A stretch of 64,000 nucleotides of DNA from NCBI GenBank assembly GCA_003696765.1, contig RFFX01000050.1, positions 12,894-76,893 of the forward strand. Direction: 5' to 3'. This stretch comes from Zetaproteobacteria bacterium. GTDB lineage: Bacteria; Pseudomonadota; Zetaproteobacteria; Mariprofundales; J009. A program made the translations under genes and the position numbers. A model generated the notes under the pieces. It was given only the letters and a program-made list of their open reading frames with translations. It searched no databases and was not told the DNA's origin. Positions within the stretch are counted from its first letter, which is position 1, and each line of letters opens with the position of its first letter. Below are positions 1 through 41,578 of the stretch, in pieces.

Positions 1-1283
1 GTCGCTTTGCGTTCGGCATCGGTCAGCCCCTCCTTCGGCGGCGCCAGCCGCGCCTGCAGCGGGCCGCCGAGCGCCACCCCCACCACCTGGGGCGATCGCT
101 GCACGCCAGCGAAGAGGGGGGCCATCCTGCGCAGCGGATCGACATCGAACGGCGGCCCGTTCTGCACCGCCGAGGCGGGGCTGCTGCGCATCAACACCGT
201 ACAGTCGTGCGCCTGTTCGCTGCAGATCAGCGGCGAGACGAAGGGCATCGCCACTTCGCGCAGCCCGCGGGTGAGCGAATGCGTCGGATTGAGGTCGTGG
301 ATCGCCGGCATGAAGGGGTAGTCGACCGCCGAGCGGAACATGAAGATCCCCTGCCGCTGGTTGACCATCACCCGGCCGGCGTCGCGGTCGAAGACCAGCC
401 CGGGGCGGACCACCACACCGAGATCGTCGCGCAGCCAGTCGTTGGCGTAGCGATCGACCGGCTGGACGCGGAAACCGAGATCGAGCTGCGGCACGGCGTT
501 GCCGGCGAGCACCAGCAGCCCGCCGCCGCGCAGGCGCAACTGCTCGATGCGGTAGCGGGCCAGCGTCGAGAGCGGCTTGGTGGCGCCGGCGACGATCAAC
601 GCGGCGAGATCCTCGGGCAGCGCCTCGCGCTCGGGGTGGACCACCTCGAAGCGGTAGTCGTCCCCGGCCAACTGACGCAGCCGCCCCATGCGGTCGAGCG
701 GGATCGCGCCGTCATCCTCCATCACCCCGATGGTCCGCTTGCCGCTGCCGGTCACCTGCTTGATCCGGCGGGTAAGGTTGTACTCGAAGCCCGATTCGCT
801 CTGCACCACCGGGATGGTCGCCTTCTTGTCGAGATACTCGACCACCAGCGCCATGTAGCCCTGCTTGATCTGCGCCTGATCGTCCTCCACCACCTGCACC
901 TGCACCCGGGGGATGCCCATCGCGGCCAGCGCCGCCGCAGCGCTGCTGTCGCGATCGGGGTCGATCACCTCGTAGCTGATGTTGGGCGCGGCGTCGTGGT
1001 AGCTGGCCAGCATGTCGGTGATGAAGCGGCGCAGCGCGCCGTAGGGCTGCGGCAGGCCGCTGGTGATGTAGGCGCGGATGCGTACCGGCTCCTTGACTCG
1101 GCGCAGCACCGCGCGGGTGGCGTCGGAGAGGGTGTAGACCCCATCCTCGGTCCAGTCGAAGCGGAGGTGGGCGGTCCACGCCGCGGCGTAGAGCGCGACC
1201 AGCGCCAGCACGAAAAGCGCCAGCGTGGCCCACGCCCGACGACGGATGACCACGCGGCCGTCGGCCTGCCGGTTCACCGCCAT
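1..1283 (-). CDS. GldG-like auxiliary component of an ABC-2 type transporter (N-terminal 427 codons; 3' end lies beyond the window start)
   Basis: Absent from the ORF track because it has no stop codon in the window. My minus-strand translation from the ATG at 1283 (which overlaps the permease stop, ATGGCGGTGA) reads MAVNRQADGRVVIRRRAWATLALFVLALVALYAAAWTAHLRFDWTEDGVYTLSDATRAVLRRVKEPVRIRAYITSGLPQPYG... and stays open to position 1. It has a membrane anchor plus the 'DxTxxxxYTLS' opening typical of GldG-type proteins, and it follows an ABC ATPase and an ABC-2 permease. Confidence 0.65.
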   Translation of the reverse strand, partial: MAVNRQADGRVVIRRRAWATLALFVLALVALYAAAWTAHLRFDWTEDGVYTLSDATRAVLRRVKEPVRIRAYITSGLPQPYGALRRFITDMLASYHDAAPNISYEVIDPDRDSSAAAALAAMGIPRVQVQVVEDDQAQIKQGYMALVVEYLDKKATIPVVQSESGFEYNLTRRIKQVTGSGKRTIGVMEDDGAIPLDRMGRLRQLAGDDYRFEVVHPEREALPEDLAALIVAGATKPLSTLARYRIEQLRLRGGGLLVLAGNAVPQLDLGFRVQPVDRYANDWLRDDLGVVVRPGLVFDRDAGRVMVNQRQGIFMFRSAVDYPFMPAIHDLNPTHSLTRGLREVAMPFVSPLICSEQAHDCTVLMRSSPASAVQNGPPFDVDPLRRMAPLFAGVQRSPQVVGVALGGPLQARLAPPKEGLTDAERKA

Positions 1284-2937: not shown

Positions 2938-3016
2938 CGGCGGGCGAATGTTACCGGGGGTCGCCCCCGCCGCAACCGCCCTCATCCCCTTCGGAGAGGA
3001 GATGCGGCCCACGGCC

Positions 3017-3173
3017 ATGATGGAATCGCAAAAAGTCCGTCCTTGGACTCTTTGCTTGACGGGGATCGAAGAGCGCAGTCTTAGATCGCCTTACAAGACA
3101 GTCGCTTGCATGCGCAAGCTCCCGTTTTGCGCGGCCGTCCTGGCCGCGATGATGATTTCTTGGGAAACCATCA
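3017..3173 (-). repeat. Five-hairpin mosaic intergenic repeat, full copy. The strand field of every repeat feature gives the strand on which the modules read E-D-C-B-A and the loops carry GGA.
   Basis: On the + strand it reads catgatggaatcGCAAAAAGTCCgtccttGGACtcTTTGC..GGGGATCGAAGAgcgcagTCTTaGATCgCC..CTTGCatgcGCAAG..TTTTGCGCGGCCgtcctGGCCGCGatgATGATTTCttggGAAACCATCA. It shares all modules with the copies at 24016, 18253, 32003, 43591 and 47596. Confidence 0.9.
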
Positions 3174-3440
3174 GCCATACACCGGCTGCGCATGCCGAAG
3201 GGAAGCCTCCGAATCAAGCGCCGGCGGCGGAAGAGGAGGGAGGGGGGGCGGAACGGCGCCCGGGGCCTGCCGGCACGGGGGGGCAGTCCGCCCCGAGCTC
3301 GTTTGCAACCGCTCCGTCAGCCTTTTGCCCTCTTCCCTCTCCGATCGCCGGCCGCAATGCCCACCCGGCACTCAGCCCGACCGCACCCCAACCCCGTCTC
3401 CCCACCGCGTGCCGGGGAGCGAAAAACGCGGCACGCCAAC

Positions 3441-3472
3441 GCCGCGATGATGGTTTCTTGCGAAACCATCAC
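3441..3472. repeat. Solo E-module hairpin of the mosaic repeat
   Basis: Reads gccgcGATGATGGTTTCttgcGAAACCATCAc. The TGA stop of the HU-like gene (3469-3471, minus strand) lies inside its outer arm. Confidence 0.75.
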
Positions 3473-3825
3473 TGTTTCGGATTGAGCTGCTCCTTCACCG
3501 CCTGGAACGGCTTGAAGCGGAGCACGTTCCGCGCCGGAATGGTCATCTTCTCCCCCGTCCTGGGGTTGCGCCCCGTATGCGCCTTGCGCTCCTGCATGGT
3601 GAACTTGCCGAATCCCTTCAACCGCACCGCATCACCGCTCTTGACCTGCGTCACTACGACGGACTTGAATGCAGCCAGCGCCGCCTCAGCCTGTTCCACG
3701 CTCAGACCGCTCCGCTTGGCCATCGCCCTGGCCAGCTCCTTGTCTCCCATCGCCGACGCCGATCCGCTTGAGAGCAGAAGCAGCGCCGATGCAATCACCA
3801 ATCCTTGCTTCATTCGTCTGCCCAT
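3469..3825 (-). CDS. HU/IHF (DNABII) family protein with a predicted N-terminal Sec signal peptide
   Basis: The core DKELARAMAKRSGLSVEQAEAALAAFKSVVVTQVKSGDAVRLKGFGKFTMQERKAHTGRNPRTGEKMTIPARNVLRFKPFQAVKEQL is a clear HU fold (GFGxF ... GRNPxTGE). A strong SD, AAGGGAGGTG, sits 6 nt before the ATG at 3825, giving MGRRMKQGLVIASALLLLSSGSASA|MG. The internal ATG at 3750 has no SD. Confidence 0.75.
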   Translation of the reverse strand: MGRRMKQGLVIASALLLLSSGSASAMGDKELARAMAKRSGLSVEQAEAALAAFKSVVVTQVKSGDAVRLKGFGKFTMQERKAHTGRNPRTGEKMTIPARNVLRFKPFQAVKEQLNPKQ

Positions 3826-4286
3826 AAGTGACACCTCCCTTGGATCGCGCAACATGCCCCTCCATGGACACGATTGCCCGATGGAAATCGAAGCGGCGTC
3901 CCTCCATGGCCGCGCACCAGCCGGAACCCAGGCTCCCCCAGGGAAACCAGACCGCCGGCAACGCGATGCTCCACCGCGTGGGGAGGGGCGTCAACCGTCG
4001 ATGCCGCACTCCCTTGTTGCGCCGAAGATGCTTCCAGGAGCGTTGCAGCCAGATCCTGCAACATGTGTACAGCGGAGAGGAAGAAAATAATATACCGCCC
4101 AACGAGTTGGCCAACGCACCCCTGCGCCCCCCCGAGCACCGTCGCAAGGGAGGGAGTGCGCGCCGGACGCCCGACGACGGCCCTGACCATGAGTATGTCG
4201 GGGATCATCGCCGAGACCCGCAGCATGGACGGACCCCTCCGCCTCTGGCAGATTGCGTGTGCACGGTATGAAGGCGGTGCGCCTTG

Positions 4287-4420
4287 CGGCGGCCAGGACG
4301 GTCGCACAAAACCGGAGGTTGCGCATGCAACCGACGGTTTTGTAAGGCGATCGAAAACCGCGCTTTTTCGACCGCCGTGAAGCCAAAAAGTCCACGGAGG
4401 GACTTTTTGCATTTCCATCA
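4287..4420 (+). repeat. Mosaic repeat, modules D-C-B-A
   Basis: Reads gcggcGGCCaggacGGTCgcacaaaaccggaGGTTGCgcatGCAACCgacgg..GCGATCGAAAAccgcgcTTTTTCGAcCGC..GCCAAAAAGTCCacggagGGACTTTTTGCatttccatca, and ends 4 nt before the ATG at 4424. Confidence 0.85.
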
Positions 4421-4423
4421 ACC

Positions 4424-5707
4424 ATGCTCCCCCTGATGCTCGCCCTGCTGCTCCTGCTGCTGGTCGCATCCGCCTTCTTCTCCGGCTCGGAGACCGCGCT
4501 CACCCGGGCCCGCCGGGTGCGGCTGCGCATGCTGCGCAAACAGGGCAACCGCGGCGCGCACCACGCCGAGGCGCTGCTCAGCCGGCCGGAGAAGATGCTG
4601 GCCACCATCCTGCTGGGCAACAACTTCGTCAACATCGCCGCCTCGGCCCTGGCCACCGCCATCTTCGTGCGCCAGTTCGGTGATGCCGGCATCCTCTACT
4701 CCACCGTGGCCATGACCCTGTTGGTGCTGATCTTCTCCGAGATTCTGCCCAAGAGCATCGCCGTCGCCCACGCCGAAGCGATCAGCTGTCGGGTGGCCGC
4801 GCCGATGCGCGCCGTGCAGTGGCTGTTCGGCCCGCTGTTGCGGATCCTCCTGCTGATCACCAGCGCCATGCGCCGCCTCTTCCAGGTTCCCGAGGGGGAG
4901 GAGCGGCCGGTGTTGAGCCATCAGGAGCTGGCGGCGATGATCGACCTGAGCGCGGAGAGCGGCATGCTCGATCGGGCCCGGGAGCAGATGCTCGGCCAGA
5001 GCCTGCTGCTGCACACCATCCCGGTGAAGCAGATCATGGCGCCGCGCACCGAAATGATCCTGCTCGACGGCAACAAAAGCGTGGCTGACTGCCTGCGCAC
5101 CGCGCTGGAGCACCCCCACTCACGCTACCCGGTCTTCCTCGACGACCGCGACCACATCATCGGCATCATCCACCTGCGCACGCTGTTCCAGCTGCGGCAC
5201 CACAAGACATCGCTGGCCCGCGCCACCACCTGGAAGACGCCGACATTCGTGCCCAACTGCCGCAGCGCGCTGGCCCAACTGCTCGACTTCCAGCGCAACC
5301 ACGAACACATGGCCATCGTCGTCGACGAACTGGGCGACATCGACGGCATCATCACGCTGGAGGACATCATCGAGGAGATCGTCGGGGACATCCGGGACGA
5401 ATCGGACATCCCGACCGAAGCGGGGATCTGGCCGCAGCCCGACGGCAGTTACGTCGTCGCCGCCACCGCCAGCCTGCACGAGGTCAACCAGCAGATGGAA
5501 ATCGCCCTGCCGGAGGCGGGGGCGACCACCATCGGCGGATGGATCATGGAGGTGCTGGGCAGCTTCCCCGACGGCAAGGTCTGCCTGGCGACCGACGACG
5601 CCCGGCTGGAGGTGCTGAGCATGGACCATCGCTGGATCAAGCGGGTCCGCATCCAGCGCCGGCCGCGGGACGACGACGCGGCCACGAAGGAGGAGAGGGA
5701 GCCCTGA
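4424..5707 (+). CDS. CNNM/CorC-HlyC family transporter (DUF21 membrane domain, CBS pair, CorC_HlyC C-terminal domain)
   Basis: N-terminal opening FFSGSETAL, then ILLGNNFVNI, then the CBS region (IMAPRTEMILLD..., HMAIVVDELGDIDGIITLEDIIEEIVG), then a C-terminal transporter-associated domain. Confidence 0.9.
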   Translation: MLPLMLALLLLLLVASAFFSGSETALTRARRVRLRMLRKQGNRGAHHAEALLSRPEKMLATILLGNNFVNIAASALATAIFVRQFGDAGILYSTVAMTLLVLIFSEILPKSIAVAHAEAISCRVAAPMRAVQWLFGPLLRILLLITSAMRRLFQVPEGEERPVLSHQELAAMIDLSAESGMLDRAREQMLGQSLLLHTIPVKQIMAPRTEMILLDGNKSVADCLRTALEHPHSRYPVFLDDRDHIIGIIHLRTLFQLRHHKTSLARATTWKTPTFVPNCRSALAQLLDFQRNHEHMAIVVDELGDIDGIITLEDIIEEIVGDIRDESDIPTEAGIWPQPDGSYVVAATASLHEVNQQMEIALPEAGATTIGGWIMEVLGSFPDGKVCLATDDARLEVLSMDHRWIKRVRIQRRPRDDDAATKEEREP

Positions 5708-5720: not shown

Positions 5721-6224
5721 CTAGCCGGCCGCCGCCTCACCCCGATCGGGAGCGTCGGCTCCCCCGCCCCGCGGCTGCCGCACCCAGGGGAAGCGGATGG
5801 CATACTCCTCGGCCCGGATGTACTGCAGCGCCAGTCGGGTACGCTCGTTGATCACGATCGGCGCCCGCAGGTTGGCGGTGACCCACTCGGCATCGACAAA
5901 GGGGTTGAGCACCAGCATCCAGATCGGCACGTCGCCCGGACGCAGGCGGAGCAGCCGGATCTCCTCCGGACTGAGCGCCGGCGGCAGCCCCAGCCGCTCC
6001 TGATCCCACGGCGTGAGCACGAACGCCACCTCGACGTTGCTCAACGACTGCAGACAGACGTAGTCGCCGTGCCCCGGATAGATGATCGCGAAGTGCTGAT
6101 CGTCGGGAAAGCCGGCCAACCCCTGGGGGAAGTAATAGCTTCCCGCTTCGGAGGAGGCTCCTTCCGCCATCGGGGTATGCGCTCCCCGCTCCAACCGGTC
6201 ACTTCTCTCTTCTGTCGCTATCAT
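5721..6224 (-). CDS. fliW: Flagellar assembly factor FliW
   Basis: Reads ...YYFPQGLAGFPDDQHFAIIYPGHGDYVCLQSL...VLNPFVDAEWVTANLRAPIVINERTRLALQYI, the FliW pattern (FPxGLxGF, NLxAPIVIN). The ATG at 6224 has the SD GGAGAGGG but overlaps csrA by 26 nt. Alternative starts are GTG 6236 or ATG 6170. Confidence 0.8.
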   Translation of the reverse strand: MIATEERSDRLERGAHTPMAEGASSEAGSYYFPQGLAGFPDDQHFAIIYPGHGDYVCLQSLSNVEVAFVLTPWDQERLGLPPALSPEEIRLLRLRPGDVPIWMLVLNPFVDAEWVTANLRAPIVINERTRLALQYIRAEEYAIRFPWVRQPRGGGADAPDRGEAAAG

Positions 6225-6444
6225 GGCCCTCTCCACGCTGCAGCCACGCCATCACACCGGATCCGCTCGCTGCCCTGTTCTCCTTTCTGATCTGCTCGAA
6301 AATCTCCAGCCGATGTACCGGGATCTCCGCCGGGGCGTCGATACCGAGGCGGACCACATACTCGTGCCGCACCTCCTGGACCACCACCCGGATGCGCCCG
6401 TCGATCCGGATCGCCTCGCCGACCCTGCGGCGCACCACCATCAT
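6199..6444 (-). CDS. csrA: Carbon storage regulator CsrA (FliW-partnered type, extended C-terminus)
   Basis: MMVVRRRVGEAIRIDGRIRVVVQEVRHEYVVRLGIDAPAEIPVHRLEIFEQIRKEN matches the CsrA fold (RRxGE...I..V.V......VR.GI.AP....V.R.EI). About 25 extra C-terminal residues follow. The gene sits next to fliW. Confidence 0.85.
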   Translation of the reverse strand: MMVVRRRVGEAIRIDGRIRVVVQEVRHEYVVRLGIDAPAEIPVHRLEIFEQIRKENRAASGSGVMAWLQRGEGHDSDRREK

Positions 6445-6448
6445 GGAG

Positions 6449-6575
6449 GATGGAATCGCAACAAGTCCGTCCATGGGCTTTTCGCGCGGCCGCCCGTGGC
6501 CGCAATGATGGAATCGCAACAAGTCCGTCCATGGACTTTTTGCTCGACGGCGATCGACGCGCAGACCGCCTGCGG
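6449..6575 (-). repeat. Mosaic repeat, rearranged copy (A-half + D, then A + degenerate B)
   Basis: Reads gatggaatcGCAACAAGTCCgtccatGGgCTTTTcGCGCGGCCgcccgtGGCCGCaatgatggaatcGCAACAAGTCCgtccatGGACTTTTTGCtcgacggcgatcgacgcgc. It fills the flgL-csrA gap. Confidence 0.8.
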
Positions 6576-6659
6576 CCTTCGCACATACCCGACTGCTGCC
6601 GCCTGCCGCAACGCAGGGGGGCGCCGCACGCTCATCCCCGCACCCGGCCGCCGTCCACG

Positions 6660-7547: not shown

Positions 7548-7621
7548 CGCAGATCAGACCCCCAACCCTTCGTCCATGACACGGCCGAGCAAGAGCCGGC
7601 ATCCGCGGCCTCGGCGTACCG

Positions 7622-7638
7622 CGCAAAATCGAAGCCAA
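7622..7638 (-). promoter_or_regulatory. Sigma-54 type promoter candidate upstream of flgL
   Basis: The minus strand reads TTGGCTTCGATTTTGCG, i.e. TGGCtt-N5-TTGC with exact GG-N10-GC spacing. It lies about 75 nt upstream of the flgL ATG, in the 180-nt flgK-flgL gap. Confidence 0.45.
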
Positions 7639-7728
7639 CGCTTGCAACCCTACGGTTTCGCTTGGCGATCGAGACCGGAATCGGAACACTCCCCTCCCGG
7701 CCGGGAACGGTGCCGCAGCAGCCTGCCC

Positions 7729-9957
7729 TCACCGGATCAACCCCATCAGCGCATCGAGCATCTGGTTGGTGATCTGAACCACCTTGGCCGACGACTGGTA
7801 GGCACGCTGGAACTTGAGCATTTCGATCAACTCCTCATCCATGTTGACCCCGGAGATCGAGTTGCGCTGGCTGGTCAGCGAGTCGTACTCGGCCGAACGA
7901 TAGGTCTGGTTGCGCTGCGCGTTGGCCACGTCGATGCCGTATTGCGCAGAGAGATCGGAGTAGCGGCTGTGCAGGCTCTGCGGCGTCGTATCGTCGACCG
8001 ACACCTTGGTCTGCTGCAACGCGAACATCGCCGAAGCAGTCTGATTATCGGCAGCAAAGATCTTGGATGTAGTAGAATCGATGGTGCCGATGTTGATCCG
8101 GTCACTGTTGGCCGCCACCGTGCTGTCGAGAGCAAGATCGGCGCCGTCGGCACCATGAAACAGCGCATTGATCTCGTAGGCGGCGAGGAAGTTGGAAGTG
8201 TCGTCGGAGAAGCCGATGGTCTGGCCGTTGCCGGCGACCAGCTTCAGCTCGCCGTTGGCCGTGGTGCTGGCGGTGAGCGAGATGGTCGGATTGGGGGCGG
8301 TCACCCCGGCGTTGTAGTTGGCCACCGCCTGGTTGATCAGGCCGACCACGCTGGCCGTCGTCGCCGTGCCGCCGTTGTCGGCGCTGTCGTCGAGCTTGAG
8401 GACCGCCGGGTCGATGGTGATGGTCAGCCCGCCCGGATTGATCGGCGTCCCAGCCGAGTCGTAGATGTGGATCTTGAAGCTGCCCGCCTTGATCTGATTG
8501 GCGAACGGCACCCCGGAGGTGCCGAGCAGGGAGCTGGTCATCCCGAGTGCGGAGAGCAGATTGCTGCTGTCGTTGGCCAACCCCACCGTCTGACCGCCGG
8601 TGGCGGCAAGCTGCAACACCCCGCCGCTGGTGCTGGCGGTGAGCGAGATGGTCGGATTGGGGGCGGTCACCCCGGCGTTGTAGTTGGCCACCGCCTGGTT
8701 GATCAGGCCGACCACGCTGGCGGTCGTGGCCACCCCCCCATGGGCGGCGCTGTCGTCCAGCACCGTCACCGTCGGATCGATGGTGATGGTCAGCGGCGTG
8801 GTGTTGATCTGCGCCCCGGTGGAGTCCCGCAGATAGATCTCGAAGCTGCCGCTCTTGATCTTGGACGCCGCAGGCAGACCGGAGTCGACCAGCGCAGCCG
8901 TGGGATGCGACACGCTCTGCAACGCCTTGATCGTGGATTGGCGGGCGGCGGTCGACACCAGCGACGCCTGCCCCGAGATCATCGTCGATCCACGGATGGG
9001 GGTCGATCCGTTGCTGTAGATCTGATTGGCGGAGAAGATCAGATTCCTGGCGATGCTGTCGAGCTGGTCGATGTAGACCTGATAGCGGTTGTCCCGCACC
9101 TCGATCATCCCGCCGACCGTTCCGCTCTGTGCCATCCCCGAGAGCGGCACCGCCGGAGCGCTGTCCAGCGCGATCTCGTGAAATCCATTGGTGGTGAAGG
9201 TGGTTCCGCGCACCAGATGGTGGGCCAGACCGTCCTGCACCAACAGATCCCCGCCCGGGGTCTGGACCAGCGAACTGCCGTCGGGATTGTCCACCCGCTG
9301 GATCGGAATCAATGCCGCAAGATCCTGCAACGCCTGCTCCCGCTGATCACGCAGGTCGTTGGCAGGCCCCACCACGCTCTTGCTCGTCTCCTTGCGCACG
9401 ATCTGGGTGTTGAGCGAGGCGATTCGATCCAGCAACAGGTTGACGTCGGCCAGCTTGGTGTCGATCTGGCCGTCGAGGTTGATCTGCTCGGTGCGCAGCT
9501 GAGCCCGCATGCTGGTCAGGGTGGTGACCAGCTCCTGGGTGGCGATCTGCACGTTGGCCTTCTGCGCCGTATCCTGCGGATTGTTGGCCAACTGCTGCCA
9601 CGAGGCGAAGAAATGGTCGAACGAGGCGGCCAGACCGGTGGCACCCAGGCTGCCGAAGGCGCTCTCCACCGCGGTCAGCGCCTGGGTGATCTGGGTCCAC
9701 ATCGCCTTCTGCCCCGCGCTGTTGCCCAACGAACGCTGGATCGCCAGGTCGACCTGACGGCGTATCTCCGCCATCTGGACCCCGCGGCCGAAGACGAAGC
9801 CGCCGCGCTGCTCCGGCGAAGCGGAGGAGAGGATCGGTCGCTGGCGCGAATAGCCTTGCGTGTTGACGTTGGCGATGTTGTGCGCCAGCACATCCATCGC
9901 CTGTTGCTGGGTGGTCAGGGCGGTGGCCCCGATATTCAGCGCGCTGGTGATGCTCAC
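7729..9957 (-). CDS. flgK: Flagellar hook-associated protein 1 FlgK (with an internal tandem domain duplication)
   Basis: N-terminus MSITSALNIGATALTTQQQAMDVLAHNIANVNTQGYSRQ (GTG start overlapping the flgN stop) and C-terminus GVNMDEELIEMLKFQRAYQSSAKVVQITNQMLDALMGLI. These are the rod/hook family terminal motifs. Confidence 0.92.
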   Translation of the reverse strand: MSITSALNIGATALTTQQQAMDVLAHNIANVNTQGYSRQRPILSSASPEQRGGFVFGRGVQMAEIRRQVDLAIQRSLGNSAGQKAMWTQITQALTAVESAFGSLGATGLAASFDHFFASWQQLANNPQDTAQKANVQIATQELVTTLTSMRAQLRTEQINLDGQIDTKLADVNLLLDRIASLNTQIVRKETSKSVVGPANDLRDQREQALQDLAALIPIQRVDNPDGSSLVQTPGGDLLVQDGLAHHLVRGTTFTTNGFHEIALDSAPAVPLSGMAQSGTVGGMIEVRDNRYQVYIDQLDSIARNLIFSANQIYSNGSTPIRGSTMISGQASLVSTAARQSTIKALQSVSHPTAALVDSGLPAASKIKSGSFEIYLRDSTGAQINTTPLTITIDPTVTVLDDSAAHGGVATTASVVGLINQAVANYNAGVTAPNPTISLTASTSGGVLQLAATGGQTVGLANDSSNLLSALGMTSSLLGTSGVPFANQIKAGSFKIHIYDSAGTPINPGGLTITIDPAVLKLDDSADNGGTATTASVVGLINQAVANYNAGVTAPNPTISLTASTTANGELKLVAGNGQTIGFSDDTSNFLAAYEINALFHGADGADLALDSTVAANSDRINIGTIDSTTSKIFAADNQTASAMFALQQTKVSVDDTTPQSLHSRYSDLSAQYGIDVANAQRNQTYRSAEYDSLTSQRNSISGVNMDEELIEMLKFQRAYQSSAKVVQITNQMLDALMGLIR

Positions 9958-14477: not shown

Positions 14478-15221
14478 TCAGCCGACACGGCCGACCCGCT
14501 CGCTCAACTGGGTCGCCTGCTGGTTGTAGATCTCGACGATCTTCATCATGTTCTGGAACGACCGAGTGGTATCGACCATCCGGGCCATGGCCAGCACGGC
14601 GTTGACATTGGACTGCTCGAGCGCACCGTGGCGTACCACCACCTTCCCCGGCTGCACCGGACGTACCTGATCGGCCGGCGCGGTGAAGAGGGTACCGCCG
14701 AGTTTGCGCATCTTGCTGCTGTCGGAGATCTGCACGATGCCGAGGGTGGCGATCCTCGTCCCGTTGACCGCGATGGTCCCATCGCGTGAGGCGGAGACCT
14801 CGCCCGACGGGAGGGTGATCGGCGCCCCCGCGCTGTCGAGCACCGGCAGCCCCGACTGGGTGACCAGCTTCCCCCCTTCGCCGAGCATGAAATCGCCGGC
14901 GCGGGTGTAACCCTCCGAGCCGTCCTTGAGCCGTACCCGGAAGTATCCATCCCCGCTGATGGCGAAATCGAGCGGGCTGCCGGTCTGACGGATCATCCCT
15001 TCGCTGGTGTCGATGTAGCTCATCCCCGGCGCCAGGTAGGCGGAGGGAGGCTGGGCGGAGGAGGCCGCACGCATCGAATCGGTCAGCATGGTGGCAAACG
15101 AGTTGCGGTCCGCCTTGAAACCGACCGTATTGACGTTGGCCAGGTTGTTGGCGATCTGGTCCATGCTCAACTGCCGCCGCAGATCGGCGGCGGAACCGGC
15201 GATATAGAATCCTCGATCCAT
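14478..15221 (-). CDS. flgF: Flagellar proximal rod protein FlgF
   Basis: MDRGFYIAGSAADLRRQLSMDQIANNLANVNTVGFKADR ... LEQSNVNAVLAMARMVDTTRSFQNMMKIVEI. The ORF-track extension above 15221 only translates the repeat. Confidence 0.9.
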   Translation of the reverse strand: MDRGFYIAGSAADLRRQLSMDQIANNLANVNTVGFKADRNSFATMLTDSMRAASSAQPPSAYLAPGMSYIDTSEGMIRQTGSPLDFAISGDGYFRVRLKDGSEGYTRAGDFMLGEGGKLVTQSGLPVLDSAGAPITLPSGEVSASRDGTIAVNGTRIATLGIVQISDSSKMRKLGGTLFTAPADQVRPVQPGKVVVRHGALEQSNVNAVLAMARMVDTTRSFQNMMKIVEIYNQQATQLSERVGRVG

Positions 15222-15285
15222 GATCGTAGACCGCAAAACATCCGTCCGTGGACCTTTTACCTGACGGGAACCGTCGAACACGGCG
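15222..15285 (-). repeat. Mosaic repeat, A module plus degenerate B
   Basis: Reads gatcgtagacCGCAAAACATCCgtccgtGGAcCTTTTaCctgacGGGAAcCGtcGAAcacggcgg. It directly abuts the flgF start codon. Confidence 0.7.
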
Positions 15286-15415: not shown

Positions 15416-15709
15416 CTAACCCTGAGCGTAGTGCGCCGATTTTTCCGCCAGCCTTTTGTCTGTGCGGTAAAGAAAGGCGAGCAGCTCGGCCACCAGCTGG
15501 TAGGCCTCTTCGGGGATCTCCTCTCCCACCGGTACGCGGGCGAGCAGCTGGACCAGATTGTCATCGCGGTGGATGTGTACCCCCGATGCCCGGGCCAGCT
15601 CCATGATGCGGCGCGCCACCTCGCCGAATCCGGCCGCCAGCACCTTCGGCGCACCACCCCGCTCCGGGTCGTAGCCCAACGCCACCGCCGCCTCCCGATC
15701 GCGCGCCAT
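15416..15709 (-). CDS. FlhB C-terminal-domain-like protein (EscU/YscU/HrcU family, YlqH-like)
   Basis: MARDREAAVALGYDPERGGAPKVLAAGFGEVARRIMELARASGVHIHRDDNLVQLLARVPVGEEIPEEAYQLVAELLAFLYRTD aligns along its length with the stand-alone FlhB-C homologues. The SD GGGGTGGAGGGG precedes the ATG at 15709. Confidence 0.8.
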   Translation of the reverse strand: MARDREAAVALGYDPERGGAPKVLAAGFGEVARRIMELARASGVHIHRDDNLVQLLARVPVGEEIPEEAYQLVAELLAFLYRTDKRLAEKSAHYAQG

Positions 15710-15721
15710 CCCCTCCACCCC

Positions 15722-16975: not shown

Positions 16976-17061
16976 CCCCGCAGCCGTCACCTCCCGGCCT
17001 CCCACCGTTCCCGGCCGCAGCGGCCGCCTCGCACGGCGGTTGCGCAAACAGCCCGATCAAC

Positions 17062-17215
17062 CATGACGACTTCGCACGAAGTCGGCATCTGCGGCCAGGA
17101 CGGCCGCGCAAAACGGGAGCTTGCGCATGCAGGCAACTGTTTTGTGAGGCGATCGAAAACCGCGCTCTTCGATGCCCGTGAAGCCAACACGTTCATAGAC
17201 GGGCCTTTTGCGGTC
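17062..17215 (+). repeat. Mosaic repeat, full copy, antisense to the flanking genes (one of two exceptions)
   Basis: Reads catgaCGACTTCGcaCGAAGTCGgcatctGCGGCCaggacGGCCGCgcaaaacgggaGCTTGCgcatGCAGGC..GCGATCGAAAAccgcgcTCTTCGATGC..degenerate A (gccaacacgttcatagacgggccttttgc). Confidence 0.8.
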
Positions 17216-17218
17216 GGA

Positions 17219-17431
17219 TCAGCCATAACAGTCGATATGGCCGTCGGCATCACGCCGAGTCGGCTCCTTGCGCCCCTCGCCCTTCTGCTCCACCACGGAC
17301 GGCGCCTCCTCCCGGGGGGAGCGGCCGCCATCCTCGCGCCGATCACGCCGGTCGCGCCGCCGCGCGGTGTCACGCCCGGCGACCGGGAGGGGGGCGGCGA
17401 CCGGCGTGGCGGGGAGAACCTCGCGCTCCAT
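17219..17431 (-). CDS. Possible small highly charged protein (70 aa), function unknown
   Basis: The ATG lies 10 nt after the fliA stop with a GAGG 9 nt upstream. Third-codon positions are mostly G/C like neighbouring genes, but the product (MEREVLPATPVAAPLPVAGRDTARRRDRRDRREDGG...) is low-complexity. Weak call. Confidence 0.25.
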   Translation of the reverse strand: MEREVLPATPVAAPLPVAGRDTARRRDRRDRREDGGRSPREEAPSVVEQKGEGRKEPTRRDADGHIDCYG

Positions 17432-18187: not shown

Positions 18188-18222
18188 CGCCGCCCAACGG
18201 CGCCGATGCGGCACACCGGCGC

Positions 18223-18507
18223 CATGCCGCCTGCTTCTTGCAAGACCGTCATTCCTGATCGAATCGCAAAAAGTCCATCCGTGGACTTTTTGCTCGACGG
18301 GGATCGAAGAGCGCGGTCTTCGATCCCCTTACAAATCCGTCGGTTGCATCCGCAACCTCCGGATTTGCGCGACCGTCCTGGCCGCGGATGCCGGCTTCTT
18401 GCGAAGCCGTCATTCCTGATCGAATCGCAAAAAGTCCGTCCGTGGACTTTTTGCTCGACGGAGATCGAAGGGCACGCTCTTCGATTCCCTTGCAAAGGCA
18501 ACCATCA
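18223..18507 (-). repeat. Tandem pair of mosaic repeats (E'-A-B-C-D-E-A-B-C')
   Basis: Two consecutive units share ...gtcattcctgatcgaatcGCAAAAAGTCC(a/g)tccgtGGACTTTTTGCtcgacGG(G/A)GATCGAAG... The first unit is complete. The second ends in ..cttgcaaaggcaaccatcac, which contains the stop codon of the 18505 gene. Confidence 0.9.
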
Positions 18508-18762
18508 CTCCTCCTCCCCCTGGGGCTCTTCCGCCGCATCCTCCTCCGGCTCCGGCATCCTGGGCAACAGATCGTTCAACCACTTGAGCATCATGCCGAT
18601 CCAGGCCCCGGCGATCCCCAGGACCGCCATCCGGACCACCGTCTCGTAGAAGCCGATCCCGACCACCATGCAGATGGCAAAACCGATCAACGCACCGCAG
18701 GCGCCACCGAAGGCGGCCACGTGCGAGGTACTCAAGCCAACCTGCCGGGTATCGTCCGCCAT
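18505..18762 (-). CDS. Small membrane protein (85 aa, two TM segments, acidic tail), function unknown
   Basis: MADDTRQVGLSTSHVAAFGGACGALIGFAICMVVGIGFYETVVRMAVLGIAGAWIGMMLKWLNDLLPRMPEPEEDAAEEPQGEEE. Coding-like codon usage. It is bracketed on both sides by repeat copies. Confidence 0.45.
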   Translation of the reverse strand: MADDTRQVGLSTSHVAAFGGACGALIGFAICMVVGIGFYETVVRMAVLGIAGAWIGMMLKWLNDLLPRMPEPEEDAAEEPQGEEE

Positions 18763-18763
18763 G

Positions 18764-18866
18764 GATGATCACACCGCAAAAAGTCCGTCCGTGGACGTTT
18801 TGCTTGACGGGGATCGAAGAGCGCGGCCATCCTGGCCGCGATGATGGTTTCTTGCGAAACCGTCAT
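18764..18866 (-). repeat. Mosaic repeat, A + half B + D + E
   Basis: Reads gatgatcacacCGCAAAAAGTCCgtccgtGGACgTTTTGCttgacGGGGATCGAAGAgcgcGGCCatcctGGCCGCGATGATGGTTTCttgcGAAACCgTCAT. It fills the entire flhG to 18762 gap. Confidence 0.88.
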
Positions 18867-18869
18867 GGA

Positions 18870-19703
18870 TCATCCCGTCCCGTCCATCGCGTCGAGCCCC
18901 TCGCTCAGGGCGTGCTCCCAGAAGAACTGCAGCCCGCCGCTGCGCGAGGTGTCGCGCGGCCGGGAGAGGATGGCGTCCATGGTGCGGTTGAGGTGGTCCA
19001 ACAGCTGCTCCCCGCCCACCTTGTCGAGCAGCTTCTGCGACTGGATCGCCCGCCGCACGTCGGGGTGGGGCGGAAGGTTGCCCACATAGTCGAGATGCAC
19101 ATCGAGATACCTGTCGGCCACGGAGAGCAGGCGGCGGAAGGCGATCTGGGCATCGACCGCCTCCGCCTGGTTGATCAGCACCATGAAGCGGCGCACGTCC
19201 CGCATCCGGGAGAGCACCTTGATCAGCGCATAGGCATCGGTGAGCGAGGTGGGATCGGGGGTGAGCACCACCAGCGCGCTCTCCGCGGCGGAGACGAAAT
19301 AGAGCACGTTGTCGCCGATCCCGGCGGCGGTGTCGATCAACACCAGATCGTAGTCGCGGCCGATGGCGCGCATCTCGTCCAGCATCACCTGCTGCTGGTC
19401 GGTGGAGAGCGCGGTCAACTCGTGGAAGCCGCTGCCGCCGGGCAGGACGTCGAATCCGTAACCGGAATGGACCAGGATATCGGAGAGCGACTTGCCGCCG
19501 GCGACGACGTCCTGGATCGACCCCGCAGGCGAGATGCCCAGCATCACATCGACGTTGGCCAGCCCGAGGTCGGCGTCGAGCAGCAGCACGCGCATCCCCT
19601 TCCGCGCCGCCCGGGCGGCCAGATGGAGCGCGGTGAAGGTCTTGCCCACCCCTCCCTTGCCGCTGGTGACGGCGATGACGCGCGGTGTCTCTTGTTGGTT
19701 CAT
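18870..19703 (-). CDS. flhG: Flagellar number regulator FlhG (MinD/ParA-type ATPase)
   Basis: MNQQETPRVIAVTSGKGGVGKTFTALHLA (deviant Walker A), LLLDADLGLANVDV, VLIDTAAG, and a C-terminal amphipathic GGLQFFWEHAL. It follows flhF. Confidence 0.9.
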   Translation of the reverse strand: MNQQETPRVIAVTSGKGGVGKTFTALHLAARAARKGMRVLLLDADLGLANVDVMLGISPAGSIQDVVAGGKSLSDILVHSGYGFDVLPGGSGFHELTALSTDQQQVMLDEMRAIGRDYDLVLIDTAAGIGDNVLYFVSAAESALVVLTPDPTSLTDAYALIKVLSRMRDVRRFMVLINQAEAVDAQIAFRRLLSVADRYLDVHLDYVGNLPPHPDVRRAIQSQKLLDKVGGEQLLDHLNRTMDAILSRPRDTSRSGGLQFFWEHALSEGLDAMDGTG

Positions 19704-19808
19704 AATCAAACCGCAAAACCTCCGTCCGTGGACGTTTTGCCCGACGGCGATCGAAGTTCGCTGCCTTCGATCATCGCATGACGAAACAGTCGCTTGCAGA
19801 CACAAGCC
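19704..19808 (-). repeat. Mosaic repeat, modules A-B-C
   Basis: Reads aatcaaaCCGCAAAACcTCCgtccgtGGAcGTTTTGCccgacGGCGATCGAAGttcgctgCcTTCGATCatCgcatgacgaaacagtcGCTTGCagacaCAAGC. It abuts the flhG start codon. Confidence 0.85.
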
Positions 19809-19884
19809 CCTGTCCTACGCAGCCATCCATGGCCGCGGGTGGAACCGGTTCGGCCGCCCCCCATCCCCCGATGGAGAGAGCGAC

Positions 19885-24002: not shown

Positions 24003-24015
24003 CGCACCCTCCTTC

Positions 24016-24175
24016 CATGATCCGACCGCAAAACATCCGTCCGTGGACGTTTCGGCTTCACGGGAATCGAAGAGCACGGTCTTCGGATTCCCTTGCACAA
24101 CCGTCACTTGCATATGCAAGCTTCGGTTTTGCGCGGCACGCCAGCGCCGCGATGACCGCTTCTTGCGGGGCCATC
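24016..24175 (-). repeat. Mosaic repeat, full copy
   Basis: Reads catgatccgaCCGCAAAACATCCgtccgtGGAcGTTTcGGcttcacGGGAATCGAAGAgcacggTCTTCGgATTCCC..CTTGCAtatGCAAGcttcggTTTTGCGCGGCacgccaGCGCCGCGATGACCGCTTCttgcGGGGCCATC. It lies between flhB and the HAMP-like gene. Confidence 0.88.
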
Positions 24176-24273
24176 CTTCCATGGATGGTCCGCTCAGGCG
24201 GCCGTGGACGAAACCCCCGTCGATCCCCCGACAAATCGGGAGCATGACCGCATCACCGACGATGCACCACGCA

Positions 24274-27882: not shown

Positions 27883-28092
27883 TCAAGTGTTGCGCTGCCT
27901 GCAAGTATTGATTCCGAGGATGGGATAGAGCGGGCAGAAGCGGATCAGCGCGGTCAGCCCCATCACCGCCCCGACGGCGATCGCCACCATGTTCCACGGC
28001 GCGCTCAACCCGGCCAGGGCGCCGACGGCGATCAGCACCAGCCCCACCACACCGCGCAACACCCTGTCGATTCCTCCAACGTTCGCATTCAT
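27883..28092 (-). CDS. DUF2892 (YgaP-type) small membrane protein
   Basis: [64 protein letters not shown] is the characteristic DUF2892 pattern (N....R...G.......FCP.Y...G..TC). The SD GGAAGGAGG precedes the ATG. Confidence 0.75.
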
Positions 28093-28110
28093 GATCGTCC
28101 TCCTTCCTGT

Positions 28111-28140
28111 AATCACAAAGCGTCCGTCCATGGACCAGAA
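28111..28140 (-). repeat. Degenerate solo A-module of the mosaic repeat
   Basis: aatCaCAAAGcGTCCgtccatGGACcagaag; compare GCAAAAAGTCCgtccatGGACTTTTTGC. It lies just upstream of the DUF2892 SD. Confidence 0.5.
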
Positions 28141-30779: not shown

Positions 30780-32006
30780 ATGAGATACCGGACCATTCGC
30801 GGCGTCCACGACGGCCTGCCGGGCGATGTCGCCCGCTGGCGGTGCGTCGAGCAGGCCGCACGCACCCTCTTCTCCCGCTACTGCTTCCAGGAGGTCCGTC
30901 TGCCCGTGCTGGAGCAGGCCGCGCTGTTCACCCGATCGGTGGGCGAGGCGACCGACATCGTCGCCAAGGAGATGTACCGCTTCACCGACCGCGGCGGCGA
31001 GGAGATCTGTCTGCGGCCGGAGGGGACCGCCGGCGCGGTGCGCGCCTTCCTCCAGGCGGGGTTGGGCAGGTCCGGCGAACAGCGCTGGTTCTACATCGGC
31101 CCGATGTTCCGCCGCGAGCGGCCGCAGAAGGGGCGGCTGCGCCAGTTCCAGCAGATCGGGGTCGAGTGGTTCGGCCCGGCTGGACCGATCGCCGACATCG
31201 AGCTGCTGACCATGGCCTGGGGGCTGATCGAGACGCTGGGGATCGATGGCGCGCGGCTGGAGCTCAACTCGCTGGGCTGCCCGAGCTGCCGGCCGTGCTA
31301 CCGCGAGACGCTGGTCGGCTGGCTGCGGGCGCGGCGCGACGCCCTCTGCGCCACCTGCCGGACGCGGGTCGACACCAACCCGATGCGCGTGCTCGACTGC
31401 AAGGAGCCCGACTGCCGGCAGGCGCTGCGCGACGCTCCGGTGATGGTGGAGCATCTGTGCGACGCCTGCGACGACCACTTCCGCGCCGTCACCGCCGGAC
31501 TGGCCGTTCCATACGCCATCAACCCGCACATCGTGCGCGGCCTCGACTACTACAGCCGCACCGCCTTCGAGATCGTCACCGACCGGCTCGGCGCCCAGGG
31601 GACGGTGATCGCCGGCGGCAGGTACGACCATCTGGTCGCCGAACTGGGGGGCGCACCGACACCTGCGATCGGCTTCGCGCTGGGGCTGGAGCGGATCGCG
31701 CTGCTGCTCGACCCGATCGAGGTGGAGCGCGCGCAGGTTGCGGTGGTCGCCCTGGGGGAGGAGGCGCGCATCCCCTCGATCCGCGCCGCCGAGCGGCTGC
31801 GTGCGGCCGGCATCTCCACCATCCACTGCGGCGGCGGCAGCGGCAAACGGCAGTTCAGGATGGCCGACCGGGAGCGGGTGGCCGCCGCGCTAATCCTCGG
31901 CACCGACGAGCTGGCACGCGGCCTTTGGAGCGTGCGTGACATGCGCGACGGCAGCCAGCAGACACTCACCCCCGAGGAAGCGATCGCCCGGCTGCGTGAT
32001 TCATGA
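30780..32006 (+). CDS. hisS: Histidine--tRNA ligase
   Basis: MRYRTIRGVHDGLPGDVARW..., LRPEGTAGAVRA, WFYIGPMFRRERPQKGRLRQFQQIG and GGGRYDHLV are the class II HisRS motifs. Confidence 0.95.
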   Translation: MRYRTIRGVHDGLPGDVARWRCVEQAARTLFSRYCFQEVRLPVLEQAALFTRSVGEATDIVAKEMYRFTDRGGEEICLRPEGTAGAVRAFLQAGLGRSGEQRWFYIGPMFRRERPQKGRLRQFQQIGVEWFGPAGPIADIELLTMAWGLIETLGIDGARLELNSLGCPSCRPCYRETLVGWLRARRDALCATCRTRVDTNPMRVLDCKEPDCRQALRDAPVMVEHLCDACDDHFRAVTAGLAVPYAINPHIVRGLDYYSRTAFEIVTDRLGAQGTVIAGGRYDHLVAELGGAPTPAIGFALGLERIALLLDPIEVERAQVAVVALGEEARIPSIRAAERLRAAGISTIHCGGGSGKRQFRMADRERVAAALILGTDELARGLWSVRDMRDGSQQTLTPEEAIARLRDS

Positions 32007-32158
32007 TGGTTTCGCAAGAAACCATCATCGCGACCATGGAGGGTCGCGCAAATCCGGAGGTTGAAGACGCAACCGACGGATTTGTAAGGGGATCGAAGAC
32101 CGCGCTCTTCGATCCCCGTCGAGCAAAAAGTCCACGGAGGGACTTTTTGCGATCTGAT
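32003..32158 (+). repeat. Mosaic repeat, full copy (reference copy)
   Basis: Reads ATGATGGTTTCgcaaGAAACCATCATCGCGACCatggagGGTCGCGcaaatccggaGGTTGaagacGCAACCgacggatttgtaaGGGGATCGAAGAccgcgcTCTTCGATCCCCgtcgaGCAAAAAGTCCacggagGGACTTTTTGCgatctgatca. The hisS TGA is its nt 2-4. Confidence 0.92.
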
Positions 32159-32161
32159 CAT

Positions 32162-32200
32162 TCATGGAATCGCAAAAAAGTCCCGCCATGGACTTTTTGG
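32162..32200 (-). repeat. Solo A-module, inverted relative to the preceding full copy
   Basis: Reads tcatggaatcGCAAAAAAGTCCcgccatGGACTTTTTGg. It forms an inverted pair with the A module at 32123-32150. Confidence 0.75.
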
Positions 32201-32242
32201 ACCGGACGAACACAGGGCTGAACGAAAAAGGAAGGCCGAACG

Positions 32243-32280: not shown

Positions 32281-32355
<75 letters not shown>

Positions 32356-37125: not shown

Positions 37126-37140
37126 GAACCCTCCATATGA

Positions 37141-37207
37141 CTCGCAAACCTCGGATTTGCGCATCCGTCCATGGCCGCGATGATGGTTTCGCAAGAAACC
37201 ATCATCG
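37141..37207 (-). repeat. Mosaic repeat, truncated (part of C + D + E)
   Basis: Reads ctcGCAAaCCtcggatttGCGCatCCgtccatGGCCGCGATGATGGTTTCgcaaGAAACCATCATCg. The TGA of the 37202 gene lies in the outer E arm. Confidence 0.8.
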
Positions 37208-38140
37208 ATGCAACAGCGCCGTCAATGGGCGCAGCAGCCGAATCTCTCCATCGCCCAGCCGACGCAGGAAGGCGAGCGTCCGCCGCCGGGGATGGCCGAT
37301 CACCAGACAGGAGCCGCGGCGGCGGGCGATGTCCACCGCATGGCGCCAGGCGGCGGCGATCGCCCCGTCGTCGTCGACATGGTCGAGGAAGACCTGCCGC
37401 TCGGCCCAGCGCAGCCCGGCGCGCCGCGCCTCCTCCGCGGCCACCGATGCGGCCGTGGTGCGCGAATCGACGAAGAAGAGATGGTGGGCGCGGCAGAGGG
37501 CCATGACCAGCCGCATGGCGTGACGGTCGGCCGTCAGCAGCGAGCCCATGTGGTTGTTGATCCCGGCGACGAAGGGCACCATGGAGAGATCCCGCTCGAA
37601 ACGGGCGCGCAACGTGGCATCGTCCATCCCCGTGCGGAGGAAGGAGGAGTCAAGCCGCTCCCGCAATGCCGGGTTCTCCGGCTCCATCGGGAGATGGAGC
37701 ATCACCGTGCGTCCGGCCCTCCGGGCCTCGCGGGCGGCCCGGGCGGCGTGCGGCGCCTGCGGCAGGACCGAGACGGTCAGCGGAAAGGGAAGGGCCAGCA
37801 GCGCGCGCGCCATCTGCAGGTCGTAGCCGACGTCGTCGATGATCAACGCGATCCCTCCACCCCTGCGACCGGGGGCGGCGCGACGGGCGAGAGGCGGCCG
37901 GGGCACCATCCGGGCCGGCGGCCCCTGCGGCGGCATGCGCGAGAAGTCCTCGAAGAGCGGTCGGCCGGCCGGACCGAGCAGCGACCGACTCCGGGAGGAA
38001 GGCTTCCCGCCGCTCGGGGCGGAGGTCCGCGGTGCGGCCGGCGGCCAGGCCAGCCACAACAGCAGCGCAAGCAGGGCGAGCAGACCGGAGATGACCCACC
38101 GTCGCGGCAGCGCGCCCCGACGGCGACGGCGGAAAGCCAA
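37202..38140 (-). CDS. Divergent polysaccharide deacetylase family protein (YibQ-like)
   Basis: TM anchor, then IALIIDDVGYDLQMARALLALPFPLTVSVLPQAPHAARAAREARRAGRTVMLHLPMEP...GINNHMGS...FFVDSRTT, the YibQ family pattern. Apparent TTG start directly after the ctpA stop. Confidence 0.85.
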   Translation of the reverse strand: MAFRRRRRGALPRRWVISGLLALLALLLWLAWPPAAPRTSAPSGGKPSSRSRSLLGPAGRPLFEDFSRMPPQGPPARMVPRPPLARRAAPGRRGGGIALIIDDVGYDLQMARALLALPFPLTVSVLPQAPHAARAAREARRAGRTVMLHLPMEPENPALRERLDSSFLRTGMDDATLRARFERDLSMVPFVAGINNHMGSLLTADRHAMRLVMALCRAHHLFFVDSRTTAASVAAEEARRAGLRWAERQVFLDHVDDDGAIAAAWRHAVDIARRRGSCLVIGHPRRRTLAFLRRLGDGEIRLLRPLTALLHR

Positions 38141-39650: not shown

Positions 39651-39651
39651 G

Positions 39652-41567: not shown

Positions 41568-41578
41568 CCCCGGTTCGG

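Follow-up and report, generated by a model that had tools for sequence, protein, structure and literature searches.

Positions 18207-18507 of the analysed DNA (64 kb of the zetaproteobacterial contig RFFX01000050.1, referred to as a whole as the window) carry, on the minus strand, one full and two partial copies of a modular repeat of ~157 nt, flanked by a gene of 85 amino acids (aa) and by fliA. Neighbouring units are separated by the spacer AGGAA. Copy 1 is full (18256-18412, minus strand, 157 nt; nhmmer E=1.3e-55), reads 5' TGACGG...GATCA 3' and comprises, all on the minus strand, modules E (18389-18412), D (18368-18386), C (18332-18367), B (18299-18328) and A (18266-18293). Copy 2 (18418-18507, minus strand; nhmmer E=1.3e-25) is internally deleted, its 5' TGATGG being fused to the end of C and followed by B (18460-18489, minus strand) and A (18427-18454, minus strand). 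Copy 3 (18207-18251, minus strand; nhmmer) is partial, consists of E and a D2-type hairpin without GGA, and lies directly upstream of fliA (ATG at 18190).

The full unit is built of E (TGACGGCTTC-GCAA-GAAGCCGGCA), D (CGCGGCC-AGGAC-GGTCGCG), C (a 36-nt hairpin) and B (GGGGATCGAAGA-CCGCGC-TCTTCGATCCCC), followed by the linker GTCGAG, A (GCAAAAAGTCC-ACGGAT-GGACTTTTTGC) and the tail GATTCGATCA. Copy 1 has exactly these A and D hairpins; its A hairpin matched the search pattern with 0 mismatches (loop at 18277-18282) and its D loop lies at 18375-18379. The A hairpin of copy 2 matched the same pattern with the loop ACGGAC at 18438-18443. A and D share the motif CC-A[CT]GGA[CTG]-GG, in direct orientation and about 100 nt apart.

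Copies were collected with an nhmmer profile built from ten window copies, which located about 24 copies or fragments within the 64 kb. Full-length copies measure 155-159 nt, are non-coding and dispersed, and dozens more were found in other genomes. The A-hairpin pattern alone gave 12 matches in the window against 0 expected; the repeat is real, and a chance pattern is excluded. Genes were called with a codon model seeded on GC3, with Pfam used as a check. The window has a GC content of about 0.68 and a uniform GC skew. Its FlhA is 100% identical to a protein of a zetaproteobacterial metagenome assembly, and the next relatives of this FlhA are from the Mariprofundales.

Termini, flanking repeats and empty sites

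The repeats are best read as a previously undescribed family resembling miniature inverted-repeat transposable elements (MITEs), ~157 bp long and non-autonomous, a reading to which we assign a probability of roughly 0.8. The termini are imperfect inverted repeats of ~20 nt (TGAYGRCTTCGCAAGAAGTC...GACTTTTTGCGAT....TCA), matching at 15 of 20 positions when read from the sequences (TGACGACTTCGCAAGAAGTC against the reverse complement TGAGCAGATCGCAAAAAGTC). Perfect 5-bp direct repeats flank 20 of the 46 full-length copies for which both ends were located, with about 0.04 expected by chance, and seven more of the 46 have a flanking repeat that is one base off. Examples of flanking repeats in the window are ATTCA (copy at 31996-32170), ATCCA (18752-18874), ATGGC (3007-3182) and AGTTC (43584-43761).

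Empty sites were sought in the four closest retrievable flagellar clusters (L121 to L124; FlhA 77-87% identical, GC 0.54-0.61). No element was found anywhere in the orthologous flagellar region of these four. Their junctions are compact or overlapping, as in the GTGA between flhG and an 80-aa gene, and an ordinary AGGAG Shine-Dalgarno sequence precedes flhG and flgF. The element entered the lineage of the window after its split from the nearest sequenced relatives.

One of the four clusters, L122, contains runs of N (scaffold gaps) at about 2050-2150, in the region of a 187-aa gene, and at about 5760-5860; the latter falls exactly at the flhF/flhG junction, where the window has an element. These runs may be assembly breaks at repeats. 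For so short a protein distance, the base composition has also shifted strongly, with a GC content of 0.68 in the window and 0.54-0.61 in these closest relatives.

More distant relatives of the element were found by a loop-neutral genome scan (CAAAANGTCC-N6-GGACNTTTTG; at least 120 loci) followed by nhmmer. Full-length copies were recovered from metagenome-assembled genomes (MAGs) of Mariprofundaceae, from Desulfurivibrio dismutans and Desulfurivibrio sp., from the gammaproteobacterial MAG J113 and from the unclassified proteobacterium ZodW_Metabat.265. A second subfamily, type II, has the same inverted termini with a different interior (L113:2450-2600, L088:4254-4388, L030:3550-3690, L017:3065-3205, L016:1673-1817, L103:6960-7103 and L062). 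In the predicted fold of type II the termini pair with each other, and the interior forms the hairpins GGGGAA-AGGA-TTCCCC, TCCTACAG..CTGTAGGA and GCGGTT-TCC-AACCGC. Type II retains GCC-ACGGAY-GG near both ends, in direct orientation and in a different structural setting. A plasmid BLAST search for the element returned chance matches only, and literature searches turned up no publication that connects CsrA and MITEs or reports on zetaproteobacterial repeats.

Gene boundaries, RNA structure and orientation

The element inserts at gene boundaries, its own 5' TGA often becoming the upstream stop codon and its 3' ...TCA rebuilding an ATG with the flank. The 5' TGA of the element is the stop of the upstream gene at five places in the window: 18505-18507 (the 85-aa gene), 32004-32006 (full copy at the hisS 3' end, 31996-32170, plus strand), 43591-43593 (full D2-type copy between two motB-like genes, 43584-43761, plus strand), 47597-47599 (stop of fliP; full copy between fliP and nadE, 47590-47765, plus strand) and 3469-3471 (partial E and D2 copy ending the HU gene, 3426-3476, minus strand). 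For 9 of the 20 copies that have perfect duplications, an ATG is reconstituted from the 3' ...TCA and the TG that follows it. The pre-insertion reading frame of hisS would extend about 19 codons further.

The A hairpin stands 9-13 nt before an ATG that has no Shine-Dalgarno sequence at flgF (15221), flhG (19703), csrA (6444) and CorC (4424). The flgF copy consists of the A hairpin and part of B (15209-15282, minus strand) and ends 11 nt before the start; the flhG copy, with modules D to A, lies between flhF and flhG and adjoins the flhG ATG (19695-19847, minus strand). Two partial copies (B-A, then D'-A') occupy the csrA leader (6437-6581, minus strand), the last A hairpin standing 13 nt before the csrA ATG, and a copy with modules D to A has its A end 13 nt before the CorC ATG (4264-4429, plus strand). 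The flgF and flhG starts were fixed by ortholog N-termini, the csrA start by a Pfam match from residue 1, and the CorC start by reading the upstream sequence. The original prediction had counted two further starts of this kind, those of the 18762 gene and of hslV, and these are uncertain. After the element, intact Shine-Dalgarno sequences such as AAGGAGG, GAGGAG and AGGAG occur in other genomes; the arrangement without one is thus a local outcome of insertion at a start codon. Within the window, the gene downstream of the full D2-type copy after flhB (24009-24182, minus strand) likewise retains its own GGAGGG.

Upstream of flgF, a small open reading frame (15419-15718) encodes the FlhB C-terminal domain alone (PF01312, model residues 261-334) and is kept in 4/4 of the relatives L121-L124.

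The other copies in the window were located as follows. On the minus strand, a full copy lies between an HU-side fragment and an ABC ATPase gene (3007-3182; A loop AAGGAC), a copy without module C between flhG and the 85-aa gene (18752-18874), and a partial copy (E, D and degenerate C/B) between deacetylase and TPR genes (37080-37212). The same strand carries an A-only fragment (loop ATGGCG; 32155-32208) downstream of a tRNA gene (32284-32355, minus strand), a degenerate A-like remnant upstream of the HU gene (3848-3895; nhmmer E=3e-5) and two weak A-like remnants, at 28087-28135 (nhmmer E=0.006) and upstream of hslV at 41575-41615 (nhmmer E=0.013). Three copies on the plus strand are antisense to their neighbours: a partial copy (E, D2 and C) antisense to flgK and flgL (7581-7674; nhmmer E=1e-8), a full copy antisense to fliA and the downstream gene, with the degenerate A loop ATAGAC (17055-17235), and a copy with modules C to A and a decayed A 3' arm between hslU and an S41 peptidase gene (39539-39659).

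Two of the adjoining genes have features of their own. The flgK coding sequence contains a 167-nt direct repeat (8262-8428 and 8628-8794, 89% identical) that resembles an internal duplication of a FlgK segment. HslV (41013-41615) has a putative 7-residue N-terminal extension, MGTEWRA, before the canonical TTI, and its start codon is uncertain; the catalytic Thr of HslV is normally residue 2. Among partial copies in the window, the 3' (A) end is kept in about 11 and the 5' (E) end in 5, and most solo A hairpins are sense-oriented and just upstream of a start codon. The excess of A ends could be due to detection bias, to 5' truncation on insertion or to selective retention.

The genes flanked by elements in the window include hisS, the tRNA gene, the TPR, deacetylase and S41 peptidase genes, hslU/hslV, nadE, and the HU, ABC ATPase and CorC genes, as well as motB and fliP; in other MAGs they include mgtE, pheT, purL, relA and others. 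Because so many of these genes are non-flagellar, the association with the flagellar and csrA-fliW cluster on which the original prediction leaned reflects the content of the window.

RNA structure was assessed on alignment A1, which holds 53 full copies, among them copy 1, from six genomes. In this alignment, which was also folded with RNAalifold, 94.9% of cells in the five helices were paired and 30 of 54 pairs had changes on both sides; 0/500 shuffles reached the observed values, and slid controls gave about 40% pairing. The sense fold was the more stable in 42 of the 53 copies (means of -81.7 kcal/mol sense and -74.8 kcal/mol antisense), and the sense strand held 130 G.U cells and 49 A.C cells. 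This asymmetry, together with the stability of the sense fold, points to a structure selected in the sense orientation, whether in RNA or in single-stranded DNA; the G.U excess marks the sense strand as the structured one. The E loop reads GCAA on that strand. No Rfam family matched the element at gathering or permissive thresholds. No promoter-like site was found in the elements, and copies lie inside operons, which sets them apart from discrete small RNA (sRNA) genes of the CsrB/RsmZ type. Intra-operon copies would be co-transcribed with their neighbours, and the sense transcript would fold into the five hairpins E, D, C, B and A.

Orientation was scored relative to the adjacent genes. The original prediction had found the strand with the GGA loops to be the coding strand in 16 of 18 copies. 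A sense bias is indeed present in the window and is weaker than was claimed (17 sense and 3 antisense over 20 intergenic regions, p=0.0013; 13 sense and 3 antisense when only strong matches are counted, p=0.011); the antisense copy between flgK and flgL (7581-7674) had been missed beside those at 17055-17235 and 39539-39659. Between co-directional genes of sister zetaproteobacterial MAGs, 15 copies were sense and 12 antisense (p=0.35), and ten genes beside the antisense cases were confirmed by Pfam. A genome-wide orientation ratio near 1:1 had been named beforehand as an outcome that would speak against CsrA sites, and by this standard the ratio in the sister MAGs speaks against a family-wide requirement at the RNA level. 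One-sided sign tests gave p=0.008 for Desulfurivibrio (7 sense, 0 antisense), p=0.81 for ZodW_Metabat.265 (2 sense, 3 antisense) and p=0.25 for J113 (2 sense, 0 antisense). The sense bias in the window is real, modest and not a property of the family.

Three causes of the bias were considered and set aside. Replication direction was ruled out, as the element strand switches with the gene strand under a uniform GC skew. An open frame through the sense element, which would allow read-through or coupling, was rejected because sense and antisense do not differ in this respect. Termination or promoter activity was rejected because there are no promoter-like sites and the weak terminator-like matches are symmetric. 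The bias most likely reflects purging of antisense insertions among old copies, or small-sample noise. Mean pairwise identity of copies is 78% in the window (the most diverged), 88% in S009_29 and 96% in Desulfurivibrio; the divergence in the window fits older insertions filtered by selection, and the Desulfurivibrio result does not.

Tracking of the gene strand rather than the absolute strand (Fisher p=0.019 in the window, under uniform GC skew) also bears on whether the units are of the REP/REPIN type or derived from IS200/IS605, in which case a tyrosine (HUH) transposase would mobilise them as single DNA strands and replication direction would set their orientation. Several hairpins per unit, a strand-specific structure with G.T-tolerant pairs, and direct motifs at both ends, which would suit a single-strand transposase, are all features that such units could have. 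The target-site duplications are not made by these families, inverted terminal repeats are present and a GTAG-type REP head is not; together with the dependence on gene strand, this makes such an origin very improbable.

Several observations weigh against the MITE reading. Of the 20 perfect flanking repeats, seven are found in tandem arrays, where unequal recombination rather than independent insertion could have produced them, and 13 are outside arrays. No autonomous element with these inverted repeats was found in plasmids or among the fetched loci, which were searched for paired inverted repeats 0.4-10 kb apart. A plain DDE-type MITE does not obviously explain the compensatory conservation of five helices across phyla, the G.U asymmetry of the sense strand, or two identical loop motifs in direct orientation. 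A palindromic-like target leaves the sense bias of the window (13-17:3) and of Desulfurivibrio (7:0) unexplained. Nor does the MITE reading explain how flgF, flhG, csrA and CorC, which start directly at the element end without a Shine-Dalgarno sequence, are translated.

Resemblance of the hairpin loops to CsrA sites

The original prediction held that the loops of modules A and D display A(N)GGA on the sense strand and could be cis-acting or titrating CsrA sites tuning individual cistrons. Its list of A loops (ACGGAC, ACGGAT, ACGGAG, ATGGAC, ATGGAG and AAGGAC) was correct on re-reading, as were the loops of the complementary strand (GTCCGT or CTCCGT). Seventeen to 18 of 20 A-type hairpins in the window present A-N-GGA-N closed by C-G on the sense strand. 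The statement on D loops holds for 9 of 14 D hairpins (AGGAC, AGGAT, ATGGAG, ATGGAT or ATGGAC); the other five, at 3426-3476, 7581-7674, 18207-18251, 24009-24182 and 43584-43761, have a D variant whose loops, for example CTGGCGTG, contain no GGA. On stems of >=4 bp, 21 ANGGAN hexaloops fall inside elements and 15 in the rest of the window, both strands of the latter being counted. The presence of csrA-fliW in the cluster was confirmed by Pfam for both genes: csrA (6199-6444, minus strand; PF02599, E=1.2e-14) aligns with CsrA/RsmE chains from the PDB, and fliW (5721-6236, minus strand) matches PF02623 (E=8.4e-18). The CsrA of the window is canonical, with full-length alignment to the B. subtilis, E. 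coli and RsmE structures.

The high-affinity consensus of CsrA/RsmE is an ANGGAX hexaloop placed directly on a stem; in the hcnA reference, a C-G pair closes the loop ACGGAU (Duss et al. 2014, PMC4005645). A CsrA of the FliW type recognises ANGGA hexaloops and 'CANGGANG' structures, has binding sites between the cistrons of polycistronic transcripts, and is open to titration by a target mRNA (Dugar et al. 2016, PMC4894983). Hairpin A, and D where it has GGA, form C-ANGGAN-G hexaloops or AGGAN pentaloops directly on stable stems, and the A loop of copy 1 (18277-18282) is identical to the hcnA loop. Because the loop, its placement on the stem and a canonical CsrA all correspond to published cases, the resemblance is specific rather than loose. 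Judged by sequence and predicted fold, the loops of A and D genuinely match the high-affinity consensus; binding of CsrA by the element hairpins is plausible, and binding of A and D loops in vitro seems likely.

The A and D hairpins may further be functional CsrA sites, either blocking initiation at the starts 9-13 nt downstream (flgF, flhG, csrA and CorC), where a CsrA dimer on hairpin A would be expected to fall within the ribosome footprint, or titrating CsrA. In the titration variant, many transcribed copies would sequester CsrA in a host with FliW and without any known sponge sRNA. Besides the fit to the consensus and to the known behaviour of FliW-type CsrA, such a function could draw on how the loops vary. 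Zetaproteobacteria, Desulfurivibrio and J113 all retain the loop motif, also in copies whose D stem has changed from G-C to C-G (columns 31/44), and positions N and X are variable whereas A, G, G and A hardly ever change. Since C is present in the loop at N and X only, a C-to-T mutation bias could produce the same pattern. The motifs are in direct orientation and are kept in the type II subfamily as well. Per element, the sense strand carries 5.0 GGA and the antisense strand 2.5, the window shows its sense bias, and the csrA leader has two such hairpins.

The lineage of ZodW_Metabat.265 can be read on both sides of the question. Its copies have no GGA in either loop (D, GCGC or GGGC; A, CGGATC, CGCATC or CGCAAT), a joint loss expected if both loops served one shared ligand, and yet the element was kept and multiplied. 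Two sites are within reach of one CsrA dimer when about 10-63 nt apart. The A hairpins stand 58 nt apart in the csrA leader, tandem copies are separated by 161 nt, and the A-to-D spacing of about 100 nt exceeds the optimum of roughly 18 nt for two CsrA sites (PMC4894983). Functional sites are also at odds with the 15:12 orientation in sister MAGs (antisense cases confirmed by Pfam), with the five of 14 D hairpins in the window that have no GGA, with the intact Shine-Dalgarno sequences downstream of the element in other genomes and with the unrelated housekeeping genes that it flanks. We regard functional sites as possible but rather unlikely, and a selected regulatory or titrating role of the hairpins is similarly doubtful.

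Cistron-specific tuning, as first proposed, is not supported by the comparison with relatives. None of the four closest relatives has the units at the orthologous sites, and they are therefore not conserved regulators of these cistrons; since the insertions are also recent, evolved cistron-specific tuning of the flagellar genes is unlikely.

The motif CC-AYGGAY-GG might instead be recognised by a factor other than CsrA, either the mobilisation machinery of the element or another host nucleic-acid-binding protein, the likeness to CsrA sites being coincidental. Conservation of the motif across subfamilies and lineages along with the inverted repeats, the position of its A copy immediately inside the right inverted repeat and the unbiased orientation of the youngest large family would suit such a factor, as would the consideration that conservation among MITE copies reflects the propagation needs of master copies. 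Transposase sites at inverted ends are, however, expected to be inverted, whereas the motif copies are direct; the ZodW lineage proliferated without the motif; and an arbitrary conserved hexaloop would match A-N-G-G-A-N with C-G closure with a probability that we estimate at <1%, before allowing for the number of recognisable motifs. We consider this explanation unlikely.

Under the MITE reading, the C-ANGGAN-G loop of A and D would belong to the conserved design of the element. Transcripts of the element are, from loop sequence and shape, probably able to bind CsrA, and this binding would then come with the element, as a by-product or as one of its properties, rather than amount to evolved, cistron-specific control of the flagellar genes.

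A different hairpin-bearing repeat was seen in a Caldithrix MAG (L025, L052, L058, L079 and L093). It has the same hairpin, CAAAAAGTCC-ACGGAT/ACGGAG-GGACTTTTTG, with GCCGCAGG/CCTGCGGC lengthening the stem, and the other modules are absent.

The broadest form of the idea, that a mobile family is spreading ready-made, high-affinity CsrA-binding hairpins through the genomes of FliW-type bacteria, is improbable on balance. If it were true, each intra-operon insertion would put the downstream cistron, including csrA itself, under CsrA control; the hundreds of transcribed copies would form a dispersed CsrA sponge in organisms without a CsrB-like sRNA; and the one lineage that lost both loops would have escaped CsrA or would lack it. 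Should the hairpins bind CsrA, this would be the first case known to us of a transposable element distributing the sites of a global translational regulator, and would offer a fast route to rewiring a post-transcriptional regulon and a possible sponge where FliW is the only known antagonist of CsrA. Regardless of CsrA, the family is a MITE with five helices kept by compensatory change across phyla on one strand, which lands at start/stop junctions, supplies stop codons and leaves essential flagellar genes without a Shine-Dalgarno sequence. For annotation, many of the puzzling intergenic hairpins and contig breaks in MAGs of Zetaproteobacteria and Desulfobulbales can be traced to these units.

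Comparison with known systems

The MITEs of Neisseria known as Correia elements (CREE/NEMIS) measure about 100-155 bp, end in inverted repeats and duplicate the target TA. Hundreds of copies lie between genes and are often transcribed together with their neighbours, and the transcript hairpins can affect mRNA fate; the structure is mainly one long hairpin formed by the inverted repeats, and the elements carry IHF sites and promoter fragments. The present element is likewise a short intergenic MITE with terminal inverted repeats and a target-site duplication, present in hundreds of copies that would often be co-transcribed, and its transcript is predicted to form hairpins that may affect the fate of the mRNA. 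It differs in duplicating 5 bp, in having five separate covarying helices with a GNRA-type GCAA loop and two ANGGAN loops, and in occurring across phyla.

The ERIC/IRU and YPAL elements of Enterobacteria and Yersinia (about 127-170 bp) are transcribed within operons, and orientation-dependent effects on mRNA have been reported for ERIC and YPAL. ERIC is one imperfect palindrome rather than a modular unit and to our knowledge has no CsrA-type loops. The present element is similar to this group in size and in lying within operons, and has no sequence similarity to it. BOX elements of Streptococcus pneumoniae are modular (boxA, boxB and boxC), target duplications are not characteristic of them, and we know of no CsrA-like loops in them. 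Their modularity is shared by the present element, copies of which drop or repeat modules; sequence and host clade differ.

REP, BIME and REPIN sequences with RAYT are palindromes of 20-40 nt with a conserved GTAG head, no target duplication and no 20-nt inverted termini. The present element resembles them as a short, abundant, intergenic hairpin repeat that is sometimes tandem or clustered, and departs from the REP/REPIN-RAYT pattern in its 157-nt unit, five helices, inverted termini and duplications. Units derived from IS200/IS605 have neither inverted termini nor a duplication, and their orientation follows the replication strand; the present element differs from them in each of these respects.

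In their loops, the units resemble the CsrB/RsmZ sponges and the flaA and hag leaders of FliW-type systems, in which, as in the present element, several ANGGAN hexaloops stand directly on stems within one transcript (PMC4005645, PMC4894983). Each known case of that kind is one dedicated gene or leader that has a promoter of its own, and the GGA sites are 10-60 nt apart, one of them overlapping the Shine-Dalgarno sequence. The hairpins described here, in contrast, are carried about 100 nt apart on a dispersed mobile repeat and precede, by 9-13 nt, start codons lacking a Shine-Dalgarno sequence.

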